Part shown: positions 3,418-17,981 of the stretch, piece after piece
Numbering within the stretch: the first letter of the stretch is position 1
Layout of the letters: every line of letters begins with the position of its first letter
Source of the DNA: Desulfobulbus propionicus DSM 2032
GTDB lineage: Bacteria > Desulfobacterota > Desulfobulbia > Desulfobulbales > Desulfobulbaceae
Direction of reading: 5' to 3'
NCBI RefSeq assembly: GCF_000186885.1
Contig: NC_014972.1
Span: 1-32,000, forward strand
DNA: 32,000 nt
The notes under the pieces: model-generated
The model's input: only the letters and a program-made list of their open reading frames with translations
Databases searched by the model: none
What the model was told of the DNA's origin: nothing
Program-made: the position numbers and the translations under genes

Positions 3418-4236
3418 ATGTACGACGTAACCCGATCGATCCCGATGATTCCCGACAAGAAACTGATCAAACTCCGGTTCGAGCAGGCCGCCGCCACCTA
3501 CGAACAGCAGGCAACGGTGCAGCATCGAGTGGCTGACCGCCTCCTGGGCTTGCTGAACGACAGCGCCCCCGGGGTGACCCCGGAACAGATTCTCGAGATC
3601 GGCTGCTGCACGGGACTGCTCACCGAAAAGGTGCTGGAGCGCTACCCGTCGATCCAGCAGCTGACGGTCAGCGACCTGGTGGCCGCCTTCGAACAGTGCG
3701 TGTGCCGCAAGGCTGGTCTCCGGGTCGACAATATCACCTTCTTGGCTGGGGATATCGAAACGATTCGGCTGCCGGCACGCTATGATTTGATCATTTCCTC
3801 GTCCACCCTGCACTGGGTGCATGATCTGCCGGCGTTGTGCGCCAAACTGCATCGTCACCTGCAGCCCCAGGGCACCCTGGCGTTTTCCCTCTACGGCAAG
3901 GACAATCTGGCCGAGATTCGCGCCGTGACCGGCGTGGGGCTGGCCTATCGCAATCTGGATCAGCTGCGGACAGTGGTGGCGGAACGGTTCGACATTCTGG
4001 CCGCCGAGGAGACACGGGAAACCCTGTGGTATCCGGACCCGATCGCCGTGCTCCAGCACCTGCGGGCCACCGGCGTCAATTCGATCGGTCAACGCCCCTG
4101 GACCAGACGCCAGGTTAACGCCTTCAGCCACGCGTACAGAGATCGGTTCTCCGGCCAGCAGGGCGTCCGTCTGACCTATCATCCGATGTTCATTGTGGCC
4201 CGCCCCCGGTACCAGGCAGAGGGACGGATCGGTTAG
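3418..4236 (+). CDS. bioC: Malonyl-ACP O-methyltransferase BioC-like SAM-dependent methyltransferase
   Basis: BioC-like N-terminus (KKLIKLRFEQAAATYEQQATVQHRVADRL), SAM-binding motif ILEIGCCTG, LIISSSTLHW, and adjacency to bioD. The start is ambiguous (ATG 3418 or ATG 3445; the ORF track uses TTG 3400). Confidence 0.7.
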   Translation: MYDVTRSIPMIPDKKLIKLRFEQAAATYEQQATVQHRVADRLLGLLNDSAPGVTPEQILEIGCCTGLLTEKVLERYPSIQQLTVSDLVAAFEQCVCRKAGLRVDNITFLAGDIETIRLPARYDLIISSSTLHWVHDLPALCAKLHRHLQPQGTLAFSLYGKDNLAEIRAVTGVGLAYRNLDQLRTVVAERFDILAAEETRETLWYPDPIAVLQHLRATGVNSIGQRPWTRRQVNAFSHAYRDRFSGQQGVRLTYHPMFIVARPRYQAEGRIG

Positions 4237-12119: not shown

Positions 12120-12626
12120 ATGCAAACACAATGCGTCGTGATCGGTATCGGCAATCCCTATCTTCAGGATGACCGCGCCGGGGTGGTGGTGGTGGAACGG
12201 CTGGAGCAGGAAGGGATTCCCTGCCGGACGGAGGTGGTTTTTACCGTGGGGTTTGAGGTGATGGACAAGATCCGCGGCTGTGATCAGGCGATCATCGTCG
12301 ATGCCTGCATGCTCGGCAACGAACCGGGTTCCATTCTCGAAGTCGGGGTGGACGACATCTTCACCACCCATGCCCTGGTCAATTCCCATGCCGTCACCCT
12401 GGGCACGACCCTCAAGACCGGCTATGTCTGTTTTCCCGAGGAGATGCCCGCCGATATCCGCATCCTCTTGATCGAGGTCAAGGAAATCAAGGAGTTCACC
12501 CAGCAGATGTCGTCCGAGGTGGAGGCGGCCGTGGACGTGGTGGTGGAACGGATCAAGGGAATGGTCGCCGCCAGGGAAGCGGGACCGCCCAGCCGCACAA
12601 GCGGGGCTACTGCTTGGGAGCAATAG
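12120..12626 (+). CDS. Hydrogenase maturation endopeptidase (HyaD/HybD/FrhD family)
   Basis: 168 aa. VIGIGNPYLQDDRAG and IIVDA motifs typical of the family, located directly after the large subunit gene. Confidence 0.85.
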   Translation: MQTQCVVIGIGNPYLQDDRAGVVVVERLEQEGIPCRTEVVFTVGFEVMDKIRGCDQAIIVDACMLGNEPGSILEVGVDDIFTTHALVNSHAVTLGTTLKTGYVCFPEEMPADIRILLIEVKEIKEFTQQMSSEVEAAVDVVVERIKGMVAAREAGPPSRTSGATAWEQ

Positions 12627-14265
12627 CCACCGAATAGCCGCATTCCCCCTCGGCGCCAACAAGGCGCAGGGTGTAGGTGTCTGTCTTGGCGACGGTGAAG
12701 GGCATCACCGTGGTCTCCGATCCGCCGATCCGTTTGTAGGGATTGCGGTATACCGGGGTGCCCCGGGAATCGACAATCTCCACGGCATAACTGCCCCCAT
12801 CACCCGTCGCTGAAAAGGACAGGCGCACCGGGACGAATTCCTCCAGCTCAAAGCGGTATTCGGCCACCGCGTCCTTGGCGATGGCGCCGCTCACCCCGCT
12901 GTCCCCGATCTTGAGCACATTGGCCTCGCCGCGCAGCTGCGCATCGAAGGCAATGGATTGGACAGTGAGGGTGTATTTTCCTTCCTCGCCCGTTCCCAGC
13001 ACCCGCAGCAGGTAGGTGTCGTTTTTGTCCGGGGTGAAGGGCAGGCGGACATGCTGCGTATCGAACCCGTGCCGGTACTGCTTGCGCAACACAATTTTCC
13101 CACTCGAATCAGAGAGTTCCACGGTGTATTGAAAATTCTCGTCCAGCGAGGAAAAATTGAGGCGGACCGGGCTGTTCTGATAGAGCCGCACCTTGTATTC
13201 CGCGATCGCGTTTTTCACCAGCACCGCGGAAAACTCCTCGCCATCGATCTGCAACACGTGGGCTTCGCTCCGCAGCGCGGCATCGGTGACGATGGGAGTG
13301 GTGCGGATTTTGTACCGTCCTTCGCCCTCGGTGCCGGTAACCCTGAAGGAAAAGGTGTCGGTCTTCAAGGGGGTGCAGGGAAAGCTGACCGCCTCCTTGC
13401 CAAGCGGCTTGCCGAGCGAGTAGCGGCACGAGACCCTGTTGGTCGAGTCCATCACATCGATGGCGTACCTGACCCGATCTCCAGTGGGCAGGAGGTGGAT
13501 GCGAATCGGGCTGTTTTCCTTGAGGTTGACCCGATGGTCCTGGAAACTGTTGAGGACCACGGTGCCGGTCAACTCCTGTTCCTGCGCCGTGGGCGGTTGA
13601 GGCGGCGCTTGTGCCGTGGCGCTGGCCTCGGGCGGCGATGGTTCGCCTCTGCTTTCCGTGTCCTCGAAAAACAGCGACAGGGCGGTGGCCAGGGCATCCT
13701 GGCGCAGGACATTGCCGATGTTGTCGGTCACCGAAACGAGCATCCCGGCCCATTGTCCGCCGATGTACAGGGTGCTGCCGCTCATCCCCTTGGTGATGGT
13801 GTCGTCCTGATTCACCGGGCGGACATTGATATGGCGGTATTTATCGTAGCCGACGACATCCACCGGCGTTTTGCGGATGCTGCCGTCGGCCAGCATGGTG
13901 TGGAGTTCGCCCTGCTTTTCGGTGCCGAGAAGGGCGGTCAGGCGGTTGTGCTGCGGCCAGAGGGTGCCACGGCAGGAGACCGGCGTGTCCTTGTCCAGGC
14001 GAACGACCGCGATGTCCCCGGGGAAAACGTCGACCAGTTCAGCCTGGCGGCGCGATCTGTCCACGGTGGTCACCTCGATCTTGAAGGCGTTTTCCACCAC
14101 ATGGGCAGGGGTGATCAGCAGACATTCGTTCTGCCGTGGGCGGAGAATGCCCTGGCCGGTTTCATTGTCGTCGACCTTGAGGTAGGCATCGGACGCATGG
14201 CTCGGCCCGGAGACAACCTGGGCCAGGAAAAACAGGGTAAGGAAGAGGGGCTGTTTGACGTTCAT
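12607..14265 (-). CDS. Secreted trypsin-fold (S1/HtrA-like) serine protease with a Pro-rich linker and three tandem PPC-like beta-domain repeats
   Basis: 552 aa. Signal peptide MNVKQPLFLTLFFLAQVVSGPSHA. H-D-S triad in the chymotrypsin order: TPAHVV (H55), GDIAVVRL (D84), GMSGST (S162). Linker EPSPPEASATAQAPPQPPTAQEQE, then three ~100-113-aa repeats. Confidence 0.75.
   Translation of the reverse strand: MNVKQPLFLTLFFLAQVVSGPSHASDAYLKVDDNETGQGILRPRQNECLLITPAHVVENAFKIEVTTVDRSRRQAELVDVFPGDIAVVRLDKDTPVSCRGTLWPQHNRLTALLGTEKQGELHTMLADGSIRKTPVDVVGYDKYRHINVRPVNQDDTITKGMSGSTLYIGGQWAGMLVSVTDNIGNVLRQDALATALSLFFEDTESRGEPSPPEASATAQAPPQPPTAQEQELTGTVVLNSFQDHRVNLKENSPIRIHLLPTGDRVRYAIDVMDSTNRVSCRYSLGKPLGKEAVSFPCTPLKTDTFSFRVTGTEGEGRYKIRTTPIVTDAALRSEAHVLQIDGEEFSAVLVKNAIAEYKVRLYQNSPVRLNFSSLDENFQYTVELSDSSGKIVLRKQYRHGFDTQHVRLPFTPDKNDTYLLRVLGTGEEGKYTLTVQSIAFDAQLRGEANVLKIGDSGVSGAIAKDAVAEYRFELEEFVPVRLSFSATGDGGSYAVEIVDSRGTPVYRNPYKRIGGSETTVMPFTVAKTDTYTLRLVGAEGECGYSVAIAPKQ
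12610..13575 (-). repeat. Three tandem protein-level repeats (approx. aa 231-343, 344-456, 457-552) inside the protease gene
   Basis: Recurring pattern: A(I/V)AEY(K/R)(V/F).L....PVRL.FS ... Y(A/T)VE..DS.G ... PFT....DTY.LR(V/L).G..GE(G/C).Y...(V/I). The fold assignment (pre-peptidase C-terminal/PPC-like) is inferred from this pattern. Confidence 0.65.
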
Positions 14266-14289
14266 TGGTGGGTTGCGGCGGGTTGCGAG

Positions 14290-15330
14290 CTAGCAATCAT
14301 GGCTGCTCTGTTCGTTTTTCAATTTCATCTCGGAATGGAAATAGAGCAGGCGGATGAAGAAGACGATCGATCCCGGAACCGCGAGCATGATCGCCCAGGT
14401 AATCACCAGTTCTTCATCTTTTCCCATCTTGGACCACAGATTGTTGCGGATTTTCAGTTTCGTGCCCCGGAATTTGTTGATCGTGGCCGAATTGGCCTCG
14501 ACGATGGTCACGATCTGCAGGCCGCGATCCAGGTCGAAGGTGATCATGCCGCTGGTTTTCGGCTCCGTGGGCGTGAATTGCAGGCCATCGCCCAACTGCA
14601 ACTTGTACGGATCCACCTTGTAATGATTGCCGGACAGCAGCTGTTTGGCGATCATGTGGATTTCACCGTCGAGCAACAGGCCGTTTTGCTGGTAGGCGTC
14701 GTAGGTGGGCACCCTTCCGACGATAACCGGGCCATCGACGGTGTATTTCCAGGTCACGCCCTGGGCGATCATGGCGGCCGGATCGTTCAGCACGAGATCA
14801 ACGACCTCCGGCAGGGTGCAGAGGAGCTGATCGTTGTCGTCATACAGGCTGTTCTTGTCGGTGCTTCGGATCTTGACATGGACCGGTCCCTTGGCGATCC
14901 GTGAAAAGATGACCGCTGCTTTTCCATGGATTTGCAGGGATCCCGCGCCCTTGTGGGACACCGATTTCAACTTGGCCGATTCAGGTGCCAGGGGATCGAA
15001 GACCTCCGAACCCACCTCCTCCCAATACACGGTCGCATTGTGAAACGGTATGCGAGGCGGATCGATGCTTTCGGGCTGATATTCCACCTGCTCCGTCCGT
15101 GCCGAGACGATGAAGCTACCGGGGTTTAAAGTGTTGATGGCGATCTTGGCCACCAGAAACAGGAGAAAAACAAGGTAGATGTAGAAAAAGAAGACAATGC
15201 AGTGCAGCGACCTCGGATATTGCCGGGAAATGTTGTGAAAGACCTTTTTTTCCGGCTCGGAAACAACAGAGGCGAGCAGGACGTCTCTGGTGATGACAAC
15301 AAATTTCCGGAAAATTTTTTTGAACCACAC
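14290..15330 (-). CDS. Bitopic membrane protein of unknown function (two TM helices flanking a ~240-aa extracytoplasmic domain)
   Basis: 346 aa, GTG start 3 nt after the upstream gene's stop. Basic N-terminus MWFKKIFRKF. TM1 ~aa 44-65 (CIVFFFYIYLVFLLFLVAKIAI) and TM2 ~aa 308-331 (LVITWAIMLAVPGSIVFFIRLLYF). I recognised no catalytic or family motif. Confidence 0.6.
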   Translation of the reverse strand: MWFKKIFRKFVVITRDVLLASVVSEPEKKVFHNISRQYPRSLHCIVFFFYIYLVFLLFLVAKIAINTLNPGSFIVSARTEQVEYQPESIDPPRIPFHNATVYWEEVGSEVFDPLAPESAKLKSVSHKGAGSLQIHGKAAVIFSRIAKGPVHVKIRSTDKNSLYDDNDQLLCTLPEVVDLVLNDPAAMIAQGVTWKYTVDGPVIVGRVPTYDAYQQNGLLLDGEIHMIAKQLLSGNHYKVDPYKLQLGDGLQFTPTEPKTSGMITFDLDRGLQIVTIVEANSATINKFRGTKLKIRNNLWSKMGKDEELVITWAIMLAVPGSIVFFIRLLYFHSEMKLKNEQSSHDC

Positions 15331-15333
15331 GAA

Positions 15334-16122
15334 TTATCTTACCGGAAATTCGACGTTTGGCAATCTGTTGCCAAAATTTTTCCGCAACAGGTAGATGCTT
15401 TTCGGCTCGAGGAGCAGCTCCCGTTTGAGCACGCATTGGGTATCATAGGCGATGGCGTTGTCGGCGGCGATCCTGGTGCACGGAATCCGCTCCTTGGCGC
15501 CGGGAATGCCGATTTCCGTGTCCGTGTTGCTGGAATTGACATACAAGACATAATCATCGGCGGTGTCGGCGCCCCAGCTTGCCGGAACGTAGCGCATCTC
15601 CGGGGACAAACAGTCCTTGCGGGCGATGCCGGCAAGCACCGCCAGGGCGTCGGGCGTGTAGGCGGCAAGCTGCTCCTGATATTTCGAGGGCATGTTGACC
15701 GCGATGGGGCCGGGCGGCTGTTTGCCCAGCGCGTACTGCCAGGAGGCGGTATAGCGGCCGTCGCGGCTGACCATGTTCACGCAGAGCATGGCATCCTCCT
15801 CGTCCACAGGCCGTTGCAGATGGATGGAGAGCGCCTGCAGGTCAACGTGCGGCAGGGTGCTCCGCTGCATGAATCCGGCGCGCACCCCTCCTGAAACCGT
15901 GACTTTTTCCAGATAGGATTCCTTGAACTGGGCATCGCTCAAGACGATGTTGCGCGGTTGTTGCGCCATGGCGGAAGGGGGACCGCACAGCACGACCGCC
16001 ACCCACAGCCAGGTGTGCCCGGCCCGTGCTCCCCTGAGGAGGGCGTGGCGCGGCGGCTTGCCTGCAGGTGTTGTGTGCTGGTCGTGGCGGCCGGGGTTGG
16101 CGGCGAAACACTGTTCGATCAT
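15334..16122 (-). CDS. Exported or signal-anchored protein of unknown function
   Basis: 262 aa. ATG 16122 has AAGAGGA 6 nt upstream. The hydrophobic segment HTWLWVAVVLCGPPSAMA-QQ follows a ~35-aa basic N-region. Four Cys in the mature part. No recognisable motif. Confidence 0.6.
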   Translation of the reverse strand: MIEQCFAANPGRHDQHTTPAGKPPRHALLRGARAGHTWLWVAVVLCGPPSAMAQQPRNIVLSDAQFKESYLEKVTVSGGVRAGFMQRSTLPHVDLQALSIHLQRPVDEEDAMLCVNMVSRDGRYTASWQYALGKQPPGPIAVNMPSKYQEQLAAYTPDALAVLAGIARKDCLSPEMRYVPASWGADTADDYVLYVNSSNTDTEIGIPGAKERIPCTRIAADNAIAYDTQCVLKRELLLEPKSIYLLRKNFGNRLPNVEFPVR

Positions 16123-16552
16123 CGTTGGTCCTCTTGCTGTTTTCTTCAGTGAACCGTGGGGCGGCTAGGCCGTGGAAACGCCGTCGCCCGGACACAAAAC
16201 CGGTCCCAAGCCGCTCTTCCCGTGTGCGTCATTGCCCTTGCCGGTCGCTTGCGCAACGGGTTTAATAGGGACTGGCCTGGGGCGTCCAGCCCGGCGGCGG
16301 GCAAGGGCGGTCTGGCGGCCGGTTGCCGGGCCCGTCGGCTGGGCTCCTTTGAGCGGTTTCACTCTAACCATCTCCCGACACCTTTTCCATGCGAATTCAC
16401 CGCGCTTGCATAATTTTCCCCGTAACCCTCCAGGGGCAACCGCCTGTGCTCAGCTGGTTCACTCCGCTCTCGGCAGGATGGCTCTTCGTCCGTGTGGCGG
16501 GGCGCGCCAACGCGCACCAATCCGATCTGCCTGCCCGTGAGGGCGTTCTGCC

Positions 16553-16906
16553 ATGAACGAGAAGACCTCGTCCTTGCGCTGTGACAGTCTTGAGCAATTG
16601 GCGCTGGAACTGCGTCACTTTGCCGCCGAGCGCCATTGGGAGGCCTATCACACGCCGAAAAATCTGGCGACCGCCTTAATGGTCGAGGCCGCCGAACTGC
16701 TCGAGCATTTCCAGTGGCTCACCCCCGAACAGAGCCAAACGCTCCCGCCGGAGGTGCAAACCGAGGTGGCCCACGAGGTCGCCGATGTGCTCATCTACCT
16801 CACCCGCCTGGCCGATCGGCTGGGAATCGACATGCTGGCCGCGGTTCGGGAAAAGATGACGCTCAATGCCCGCAAGTATCCGGCTGTTGCCGATCGTTCC
16901 GCCTGA
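16553..16906 (+). CDS. MazG-like nucleotide pyrophosphohydrolase (small all-alpha NTP-PPase)
   Basis: 117 aa. FAAERHWEAYHTPKNLATALMVEAAELLEHFQW and EVAHEVADVLIYLTRLADRLGID match the MazG/dCTPase-type EExxE...D pattern. Confidence 0.8.
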   Translation: MNEKTSSLRCDSLEQLALELRHFAAERHWEAYHTPKNLATALMVEAAELLEHFQWLTPEQSQTLPPEVQTEVAHEVADVLIYLTRLADRLGIDMLAAVREKMTLNARKYPAVADRSA

Positions 16907-16919
16907 CGCCGTTTCGCCC

Positions 16920-17981
16920 ATGGACCCTTGCTTCGCCTTGACCTTTTTTCTTCCGGACCGGCGGGTCGACAGCCTGCATCCGCTTGGTCACGGCAACATC
17001 AACGACACCTGGCGGGTGGTGCTGGCTGACGGCACCCGGCTGGTGCTCCAGCGGCTGCGTCCCGAGATCTTTGCCGATCCGGCGGCGGTGATGGCCAATA
17101 TGCGGCTGGTGACCGAACACCTCGGCCGCCTCCCCGAACACGGTAACGCCTTTTTCCGCCTGGTCGCCAATCCCCAGGGCCTGGACTATCTGCTGGATGC
17201 ATCGGGGTGCTGCTGGCGGCTGCTGACCCATATCGACCACACCCGGACCCTGGCCCGCCTGAACACGACCACCCAAGCCCGCGAGATCGGAACGCTGCTC
17301 GGGCGCTTCCATCTGCTGACCGCAGACCTTGATTGCCGCTCCCTGGCCGATCCCCTGCCGGGCTTTCACTGCACGCCCCGCTATCTCGAACAGTTCGACG
17401 CCGTCAAAGGAGCGGGGCCGCCGGCGAACGACGACGAGGCCTGGTGCTGCGACCTGATCGAACAGCTGCGGCCGCTGGCTGCCGTCCTGGAGGAGGCCAA
17501 ACACAGGTTGAGTCAACGGGTGATCCACGGCGATCCCAAGGCGGCCAATTTTCTCTTCGCCGTGGATGCCGACCGGGCGGTCGGTCTGATCGATTTTGAC
17601 ACTGTCAAGCCGGGGCTGCTGCTGTATGACCTGGGCGACTGCCTCCGCTCCTGTTGCAACCCACTCGGCGAGGCCCATCCTGTCCCGGACGACACGGTCT
17701 TTGATCCGGAGCTGTTCGCGGCCTTGATGGACGGGTACCTGGGCCAGGCCGGCCACCTGCTGTCACCCGCCGACCGGGAGCTGCTGGTTACCTCGGCAGC
17801 GGTGATCAGCTTTGAGCTCGGCGTGCGGTTCTTCACCGACCATCTCGACGGCGACCGGTATTTCAAGGTCAGCCAGCCGGGGCAGAACCTGCATCGGGCC
17901 CTGATCCAGTTGCACCTCAATCGATCCATCCGCGCGCAGCAGCAGACGCTGGAGCGGCTGCTGGCCGCCCTCCTGGCCTGA
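16920..17981 (+). CDS. APH-superfamily phosphotransferase resembling N-acetylhexosamine 1-kinase (NahK/LnpB family)
   Basis: GHGNINDTWRV nucleotide loop, catalytic VIHGDPKAANFLF, LIDFDTVKPGLLLYDLGDCLR, and C-terminal FELGVRFFTDHLDGDRYF. These align by eye with my recollection of Bifidobacterium NahK. ATG 16920 is chosen because the ORF-track start at 16866 overlaps mazG by 41 nt. Confidence 0.6.
   Translation: MDPCFALTFFLPDRRVDSLHPLGHGNINDTWRVVLADGTRLVLQRLRPEIFADPAAVMANMRLVTEHLGRLPEHGNAFFRLVANPQGLDYLLDASGCCWRLLTHIDHTRTLARLNTTTQAREIGTLLGRFHLLTADLDCRSLADPLPGFHCTPRYLEQFDAVKGAGPPANDDEAWCCDLIEQLRPLAAVLEEAKHRLSQRVIHGDPKAANFLFAVDADRAVGLIDFDTVKPGLLLYDLGDCLRSCCNPLGEAHPVPDDTVFDPELFAALMDGYLGQAGHLLSPADRELLVTSAAVISFELGVRFFTDHLDGDRYFKVSQPGQNLHRALIQLHLNRSIRAQQQTLERLLAALLA

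Follow-up and report, generated by a model that had tools for sequence, protein, structure and literature searches.

The window analysed here is the 32,000-nucleotide (nt) stretch at positions 1 to 32,000 of contig NC_014972.1 of Desulfobulbus propionicus DSM 2032 (assembly GCF_000186885.1). It contains three closely packed minus-strand genes, denoted A, B and C, which appear to form the core of a protease module of the cell envelope. The three open reading frames (ORFs), exactly as listed by the ORF scan, are the following:

15334-16122, minus strand: gene A (Despr_0017), 262 amino acids (aa), ATG start, predicted exported protein, module core
14290-15330, minus strand: gene B (Despr_0016), 346 aa, GTG start, predicted inner-membrane protein, module core
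12607-14265, minus strand: gene C, 552 aa, ATG start, predicted secreted S1 serine protease, the protease domain of which belongs to the module core

The stop codon of A is separated from the start of B by 3 nt, and that of B from the start of C by 24 nt; both the coordinates and the gaps agree with those given in a preliminary annotation made without database searches (the sequence-only reading), which had proposed a compact three-gene envelope operon. Despr_0016 and Despr_0017 are labelled "hypothetical protein" in exact-match records, and neither locus tag occurs in any paper that we found; gene C, from the numbering of A and B, is presumably Despr_0015. Homologues are numerous for all three proteins (86 clusters for A, 60 for B and 66 for C, with E-values from 1e-50 to below 1e-200), so A, B and C are real genes rather than chance ORFs. 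At least 30 contigs of equal size are common to the three lists. Co-transcription of the three genes is suggested by their spacing and conserved linkage.

The product of gene C has the most readily interpreted architecture:

14194-14265, minus strand: predicted signal peptide (residues 1-24, ending in SHA before SD), with a hydrophobic window at residues 7-19 and an A-S-D junction conserved in homologues
13666-14193, minus strand: protease domain (residues 25-200), compact, about 175 aa
14101-14103, 14014-14016 and 13780-13782, minus strand: checked codons of the catalytic residues H55, D84 and S162, respectively
13573-13665, minus strand: Pro/Ala/Gln-rich linker (residues 201-231), varying in length and sequence among homologues
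12610-13572, minus strand: three PPC-like beta-sandwich repeats, R1 (13267-13572), R2 (12949-13266) and R3 (12610-12948)

The signal peptide of C is probably cleaved, and the mature protein, which has no pro-region, begins right at the protease domain. H55, D84 and S162 are invariant in 27 C homologues and in all distant or fused relatives compared, and by this conserved H-D-S triad C is predicted to be catalytically complete; C48 and C98 are a conserved Cys pair. The Trypsin_2 family (PF13365, clan PA) is matched by 16 of the 27 homologues (best E-value 3.8e-10) and not by the window protein itself at E<=1; the assignment therefore holds at the family level, through the homologues. In profile comparisons, the His/Asp region and the GxSGSP motif of C align to DegP/DegQ/HtrA structures (E-value 2e-4 for DegP in the PDB), and NCBI labels some of the homologues "S1C family serine protease". 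The scores against the corresponding protein families are far below the cut-offs (TIGR02037, E-value 5e-5 and 22.4 bits against a cut-off of 416; NF041521, 14.9 bits against 450), and a Pfam scan detected no PDZ domain in C or the 27 homologues; for these two reasons, we do not file C as an HtrA protein. Judging from its motifs, C is a secreted clan-PA S1 serine protease that is distantly HtrA-like.

The repeats of C, about 113 aa each, are old and diverged in Desulfobulbus, although 339-nt-spaced remnants remain traceable in the DNA. PPC (PF04151) is matched weakly by nine of the 27 C homologues (best E-value 4.2e-5) and not by the window protein, and Por_Secre_tail and FlgD_ig match the homologues' repeats as strongly. 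By these matches, the repeats appear to be generic PPC-type beta-sandwich binding modules.

Protein B is laid out around a single large domain that is predicted to be periplasmic:

15133-15201, minus strand: transmembrane (TM) helix 1 (residues 44-66) by Kyte-Doolittle scan; helix 39-68 in the structural model
14410-15132, minus strand: predicted periplasmic domain (residues 67-307), 241 aa, beta-rich
14344-14409, minus strand: TM helix 2 (residues 308-329), by Kyte-Doolittle scan and in the model

The two TM segments and the composition of the tails (43 aa with nine K/R residues at the N-terminus, 17 aa at the C-terminus) indicate, by hydropathy, a topology with both ends in the cytoplasm. 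An exhaustive profile search retrieved 179 cluster representatives at E<=1e-3, protease fusions included; they delineate a superfamily of proteins of about 270-400 aa with the shared layout of TM segment, beta domain and TM segment. The most conserved stretch across the superfamily falls at residues ~205-250 (GRVP...LLLDGE..M.AKQLLSGNHYKV.PYKLQLGD). The short cytoplasmic N-terminus is conserved in Desulfobulbales (RDVLLAAVVSEPEKKVF) and takes another form in the gammaproteobacterial group (FLLSIFVATDDIPYSAxEF), whereas many members of the largest subfamily start straight at TM helix 1.

Protein A is predicted to be a soluble exported protein, with the following N-terminal feature:

15967-16122, minus strand: predicted Sec signal peptide (residues 1-52), composed of a non-conserved n-region and a short, weak hydrophobic segment WLWVAVVLCGPPSAMA, with an AMA-QQ cleavage-like end

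The ATG at 16122 is preceded by an AAGAGGA Shine-Dalgarno sequence. The first ~30 residues are not conserved, as most homologues are shorter, about 233 aa, and have ordinary signal peptides of 20-25 aa that end in A-x-A before Q. The signal peptide of A itself is probably cleaved as well. The mature ~210 residues are well conserved, and C114, C171, C215 and C230 are invariant in 21 close and five distant homologues, down to 27% identity. All 86 clusters of A homologues are unnamed or hypothetical. The AlphaFold model of A (predicted local distance difference test score, pLDDT, of 80.7) is all-beta and resembles two tandem immunoglobulin (Ig)-like beta-sandwiches. No relationship of A to either B or C was detected by hhalign.

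The anatomy of all three proteins had been outlined in the sequence-only reading, and most of the outline stands. For A, it had noted a hydrophobic segment ending in AMA-QQ and four Cys in the mature part, which turn out to be invariant; for B, two TM helices around a domain of ~240 aa with hardly any cytoplasmic part, in agreement with the hydropathy scan; and for C, a signal peptide, an H55/D84/S162 trypsin-fold protease and PPC-like repeats, a description borne out by the invariant triad and by the Trypsin_2 and PPC matches of the homologues. It had added that loss of the triad in homologues would argue against catalysis, and no such loss was seen in any homologue examined. It had recognised no family motif in A or B, and profile and structure searches with both proteins likewise returned no characterised family or fold. 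The treatment of the PPC repeats as a core part does not hold, as they are a variable accessory across relatives.

All eight Desulfobulbales loci fetched have genes A, B and C side by side and in one order, either a few nt apart or overlapping by 4 nt, and the trio is present throughout Desulfobulbus-like genomes. Within Desulfobulbales, the mean column identity of A and B is 52-71%, and three repeats are fixed in C. In six of these eight loci, a gene for a lipoprotein of about 90 aa lies upstream of A, at the following positions among others:

L004, 6985-7254: lipoprotein gene
L001, 4587-4862: lipoprotein gene
L003, 5474-5746: lipoprotein gene
L008, 6978-7268: lipoprotein gene

An L(T/A)GC lipobox and, at the C-terminal end, a conserved YCL...KWK.DGKTPDGQTIW...PCR motif characterise the lipoprotein, which has no Pfam match. 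It may be an optional fourth component. Searches by tblastn detected no trace of its gene in the window, nor in L006 and L007, which are the closest loci, and the spacer upstream of A in the window (16123-16552) stands where other Desulfobulbus lineages carry the gene; this spacer may be a remnant of the lipoprotein-gene position.

The loci of distant B homologues were fetched as well, and the full trio is present in all of them:

L009, Aliiglaciecola sp. 3_MG-2023: order C-A-B; C of 743 aa with five repeats
L010, Thalassotalea marina: order C-C-A-B; two C paralogues
L011, Vibrio tubiashii megaplasmid pFP31: order C-A-B; C of 846 aa with six repeats
L012 and L013, high-G+C marine metagenome contigs: order A-B-C; C without PPC repeats
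L014, Vibrio sp. 09022 plasmid p09022A: order A-B-C; C with four near-identical repeats
L015, Pseudoalteromonas shioyasakiensis chromid: order A-B-C; C with a different C-terminal domain

These proteins match the window proteins or their profiles with E-values of 1e-18 to 1e-84, the gaps are small or the genes overlap throughout, and distant A homologues adjoin B and C in L009-L012, L014 and L015. Besides the window, three-way adjacency was thus found in 15 loci from at least seven lineages and in three gene orders. The sequence-only reading had left the co-occurrence of the three genes in other genomes to a neighbourhood survey; the trio proved to be adjacent in every related locus (eight) and in six distant lineages. 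The clade of S1 proteases to which A and B are tied extends over Desulfobacterota, Gammaproteobacteria (with Vibrio vulnificus and V. tubiashii among them) and a metagenome-assembled genome (MAG) labelled Nitrospirae.

In addition, four proteins (P0299, P0326, P0338 and P0319) are fusions in which a B domain is N-terminal to a C-type protease. The fused proteases share the motifs of C, VFIK..GQG.L....EC.V.TP.HV, then D(L/I)A(L/I), then KGxSGS. Between the B domain and the protease, a third hydrophobic segment is clear in P0326, P0338 and P0319, and with it both domains would lie outside the cytoplasm; the corresponding segment of P0299 is below the hydropathy threshold. A metagenome scan with P0319 found no relatives. 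In P0338 (Nitrospirae bacterium YQR-1, MEO5358325.1), the B domain and C-type protease are followed by an FGE-sulfatase (C-type-lectin-like) domain, and NCBI labels this protein solely as "formylglycine-generating enzyme family protein".

The modules that follow the protease vary among relatives, from two to six PPC-like repeats to an FGE-sulfatase domain or other domains, and the repeats are dispensable in some members (L012, L015). As far as the compared sequences tell, the conserved core is A, B and the protease domain. Several of the distant loci have peculiarities of their own. Repeat units are near-identical in L009 (4049-6280), L010 and L014 (4974-6974), which indicates recent tandem duplication of the gammaproteobacterial repeats, and in Thalassotalea the protease gene is duplicated (L010, 3325-4950 and 4965-6281). 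L012 (7217-8161, 8158-9213) encodes a protease with a different C-terminal domain of ~130 aa in place of PPC repeats and, after it, a lipoprotein of 351 aa (LLSACATG lipobox) and a Cys-rich secreted protein of 608 aa; Pfam matches were obtained for none of the three.

Could the three genes be unrelated neighbours, or miscalled ORFs, that are adjacent by chance? They have no functional annotation and no promoter or terminator signals were detected around them, as might be expected in that case. Against it stand the dozens of homologues of each ORF, the adjacency in 15 loci of at least seven lineages under three gene orders, and the B-C fusions. The synteny and fusion data effectively refute chance adjacency, and we consider it extremely improbable. 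The survival of the trio through three gene orders, fusions and spread across phyla points instead to a functional, and probably physical, partnership; judging by this genomic evidence, A, B and C almost certainly work together.

We slightly favour the view that A, B and C make up a membrane-tethered periplasmic protease complex. Protein C would be exported via its signal peptide and, as its sequence suggests, act in the periplasm as an S1 serine endopeptidase. Protein B would span the inner membrane, its N- and C-termini being cytoplasmic, and display its beta-rich domain of ~240 aa on the periplasmic face; the most likely function of this domain is to bind that of the protease and to hold or gate C at the membrane surface. 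In doing so, B could serve as a scaffold, a foldase or an inhibitor, much as an N-terminal pro-region does; its N-terminal position in the fusions recalls, by analogy, a pro-region or foldase. Protein A, a soluble protein that is probably disulfide-bonded in the periplasm, would complete the complex as an adaptor, regulator or inhibitor. The C-terminal repeats of C most likely bind a target or a cell-envelope polymer, and the variable modules would pick the target; variable modules placed after a conserved core fit such a targeting role. Three features lead to the prediction of a periplasmic location: signal peptides, Cys pairs that are invariant in A and C and would suit oxidising conditions, and K/R-rich tails on the cytoplasmic side of B. 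The physical interaction and the individual roles of A and B are inferred. The biological role could be processing or quality control of envelope proteins, or a conflict-related function. The sequence-only reading had ventured an envelope proteolytic module, and the fusions of B with the protease strengthen that proposal.

Several results weigh against a membrane-tethered complex. No gene linked to the trio is a candidate for encoding a substrate. Neither family nor fold gives a clue to the roles of A and B: there is no Pfam, NCBIfam or PADLOC match for the window proteins or for the 21 aligned homologues of A and 26 of B, PDB sequence-profile searches with either protein were empty even at E<=10, and Foldseek found no significant PDB match for either model. 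Window C stays below every Pfam threshold, and its homologues alone reach them. The AlphaFold model of B is of moderate confidence (pLDDT 68.8), and residues 206-241, within the best-conserved segment, are modelled worst, as the sole long stretch with pLDDT <50; one may speculate that the segment at ~205-250 becomes ordered only upon binding of a partner. Neither B nor C is preceded by an obvious Shine-Dalgarno sequence, and a promoter and terminator scan performed no better than on shuffled sequence, so that no operon boundaries were delimited.

The fusions bear on a further explanation, in which A and B are maturation or export helpers: the B domain, with or instead of A, would act in trans as a foldase and temporary inhibitor, comparable to the pro-region of alpha-lytic protease or to the membrane-anchored lipase foldase Lif, and C would then be released outside the cell. 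PPC-type domains are typical of secreted proteases, the mature protease has no pro-region of its own, the fused B domain occupies the pro-region position, and the tight 1:1:1 linkage of the genes fits this scheme. However, the TM segments would keep the protease of the fusions tethered to the inner membrane, a point against release; the trio has no linked component for export across the outer membrane, and no likeness in sequence or fold to known pro-regions or foldases was found. Such a helper function is, in our estimate, very unlikely.

The cytoplasmic tails of B bear on yet another scheme, regulated proteolysis for signalling, as in DegS-RseA-RseB or SpoIVB-BofC-SpoIVFA. Here B would be the membrane substrate, A its periplasmic protector and C the site-1 protease, and cleavage of B would inform the cytoplasm of events in the envelope. 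The trio matches the members of such cascades one by one, with an S1 protease in the periplasm, a membrane protein whose periplasmic domain is large, and a partner that is soluble; the N-terminus of B is conserved within Desulfobulbales and within the gammaproteobacterial group, each in its own form; and RseB and LolB are among the non-significant fold matches of B. Yet the probability of these RseB and LolB matches is at most 0.06, the cytoplasmic parts of B amount to just 43 and 17 aa without any family match, many members of the largest B subfamily have no cytoplasmic tail at all, and none of the 15 loci has a gene for a sigma factor, a regulator or a site-2 protease next to the trio. We regard a signalling cascade of this kind as unlikely, and keep to the tethered complex as the preferred interpretation.

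The genomic setting of the trio differs between the two main groups of carriers. In Desulfobulbales, the flanks vary by locus, with Ham1-like, sigma-54 activator or formate dehydrogenase genes next to the trio elsewhere, and a related MAG (L007) keeps the mazG-APH-FKBP-TGT-YajC side of the window and differs on the other. Neither tRNA genes nor flanking repeats were found at the trio as signs of insertion, the ORFs scanned around it, the only part of the window that this search covered, include no mobility genes, and the dip in G+C content is small (~0.55-0.57 over B, 0.60-0.65 around it). The trio is also widespread, and the suggestion of the sequence-only reading that it is an accessory insertion is accordingly not supported: in Desulfobulbales, it is an old, widely retained module that has shifted position, not a recent insertion. 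The gammaproteobacterial trio, by contrast, is clearly accessory, found on plasmids and in some V. vulnificus records and with neighbours resembling those of defence islands:

L009, 8333-10978 (minus strand) and 3486-3767: genes for a MalT-type AAA_16-TPR-LuxR (STAND) protein and a RelE/ParE-like toxin
L010, 831-2672: DUF2357 restriction-associated gene
L011, 12638-16612: type VI secretion system (T6SS) cluster near the trio on the megaplasmid
L014, 2646-3251 and 7170-8674: on a 31-kb plasmid, trio located between recombinase genes and adjoining an HNH_2 nuclease gene
L015, 1-3150: HNH nuclease and DEAD/DEAH helicase genes

The HNH genes beside two of these trios were considered as parts of the module and rejected, being mutually unrelated.

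This setting raises the possibility of a conflict or defence module, in which the variable C-terminal domains of C would detect something foreign in the periplasm, for example part of a phage, a toxin or a protein of a competitor, and the protease would then act on this target, on B or on A, in surveillance or competition rather than housekeeping. The gammaproteobacterial trio is patchy and lies in accessory DNA close to the T6SS cluster, recombinase and HNH_2 genes; HNH and DEAD/DEAH, DUF2357, RelE/ParE-like and MalT-type STAND genes adjoin it, and B homologues occur in some V. vulnificus records. Repeat arrays are expanding by recent duplication (L009, L010, L014), and P0338 ends in an FGE-sulfatase (C-type-lectin-like, CLec) domain, a class for which a role in antigen sensing has been put forward in work on conflict systems (PMC7159879, PMC10907252). 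On the other hand, PADLOC v2.0.0 returned no credible match, including for 50 members of the B superfamily and for distant A and C, the matches obtained being weak trypsin-like or spurious ones at E>=2e-4. There is no partner of the nucleoside triphosphatase (NTPase), Trypco or EAD adaptor, or NucA type, and scans of viral contigs and phage records yielded no relatives. The defence-like neighbours differ between loci, the two HNH genes being unrelated, while the Desulfobulbales trio is widespread and strongly conserved amid housekeeping genes. On balance, a conflict module appears rather unlikely. We attach a similarly low likelihood to the trio being a previously undescribed extracytoplasmic system in which a ligand-sensing protease, mounted on a B platform with A, would serve in periplasmic surveillance, defence or competition.

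The remaining features of the locus agree with the setting described in the sequence-only reading, as the neighbour scan places hdr-mvh genes on one side, mazG on the other, and the trio convergent with the hydrogenase operon. The plus-strand flank encodes HdrA, a Fer4 protein, HdrB (CCG domain), the small and large subunits of a NiFe hydrogenase, and HycI. The hycI-like gene (12120-12626) is convergent with C, their 3' ends overlapping by 20 nt (12607-12626), and no terminator-like structure was detected between the two. On the opposite flank, a divergent MazG-like gene is followed by a gene of the APH family (16866-17981), the two sharing 41 nt at the end of the former. The APH-family gene has a sub-threshold match to ternary-complex-associated domain 9 (TCAD9; E-value 6e-5, 22.8 bits against a cut-off of 40), which is probably mere kinase-fold similarity. 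The region between A and the mazG-like gene is the following:

16123-16552: A-mazG intergenic region, 430 bp, ~64% G+C

This spacer presumably holds a promoter, although no Rfam match, sigma-70-like site or ORF with homologues was detected in it; Rfam gave no match anywhere in the window.

Proteins A and B represent two undescribed families, which are not in Pfam, NCBIfam or PADLOC, have no similar solved structure and are tied to a distinct clade of S1 proteases. The analysis turns about 180 "hypothetical protein" clusters into a defined, testable system, and offers a provisional annotation for Despr_0016, Despr_0017 and gene C of D. propionicus. Carriers of the trio in Vibrio, Pseudoalteromonas and Thalassotalea are culturable, which makes experiments conceivable. 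If B indeed tethers or gates the protease, this would be a new mode of control of periplasmic proteolysis; if instead the trio functions in conflicts, it would extend protease-based immunity to the periplasm, as a counterpart of the cytoplasmic protease conflict systems.

Among known systems, the HtrA/DegP/DegS proteases (S1C) have in common with C an exported chymotrypsin-fold protease, predicted from sequence in the case of C, and alignable His/Asp and GxSG(S/G)P motifs. Protein C differs from them by the absence of PDZ domains, by the compact domain of ~175 aa with a conserved Cys pair and by PPC-like or other C-terminal modules, and its module includes the partners A and B, which HtrA proteins lack.

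The DegS-RseA-RseB (sigma-E) and AlgW-MucA-MucB systems resemble the trio in their three-part envelope cast. However, genes for an extracytoplasmic function (ECF) sigma factor or a site-2 protease are not linked to the trio, B crosses the membrane with two TM helices and has hardly any cytoplasmic domain, neither A nor B is related to RseB and RseA by sequence or by fold, and the protease is not membrane-anchored, except in the fusions. An RseB/LolA-like fold was not found for A, the model of which consists of two Ig-like sandwiches with no significant match in the PDB.

With Prc-NlpI and CtpA-LbcA, the trio shares the concept of a periplasmic protease that depends on a dedicated partner, and some Desulfobulbus relatives also encode a small lipoprotein next to it. 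Prc and CtpA are family S41 proteases with PDZ domains, and their adaptors are TPR lipoproteins. No S41, PDZ or TPR domains were found in the trio.

The secreted proteases with PPC domains (PF04151) are similar to C in having C-terminal beta-sandwich modules after a Pro-rich linker, but the repeats of C are arranged in tandem (two to six copies in relatives), have diverged from PF04151 and are dispensable in some members.

Closest among the systems described so far are the ternary systems of trypsin with Trypco and an NTPase and "System 3" of trypsin with NucA (Kaur et al. 2020, PMC7159879). These and the related trypsin conflict systems (Dore et al. 2024, PMC10907252) resemble the trio in combining trypsin-fold peptidases with co-occurring partner domains that were previously unknown, some of them TM-fused, as well as in the FGE-sulfatase/CLec sensor modules (compare P0338) and in the patchy, accessory distribution seen in Gammaproteobacteria. 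In contrast to the trio, they lack A and B, and they depend on components that the trio does not have. Neither the window nor the Desulfobulbales loci contain a STAND or MoxR NTPase, vWA, Trypco1/2, EAD or NucA domain; a MalT-type STAND gene adjoins the Aliiglaciecola trio only. The trio differs further in that its domains are, by prediction, extracytoplasmic.

By analogy, the trio appears to work most like the partner-controlled periplasmic proteases DegS-RseA-RseB, Prc-NlpI and CtpA-LbcA. It is a member of none of the three, because PDZ and anti-sigma domains, an RseB fold, S41 proteases and TPR adaptors were tested for and not found.

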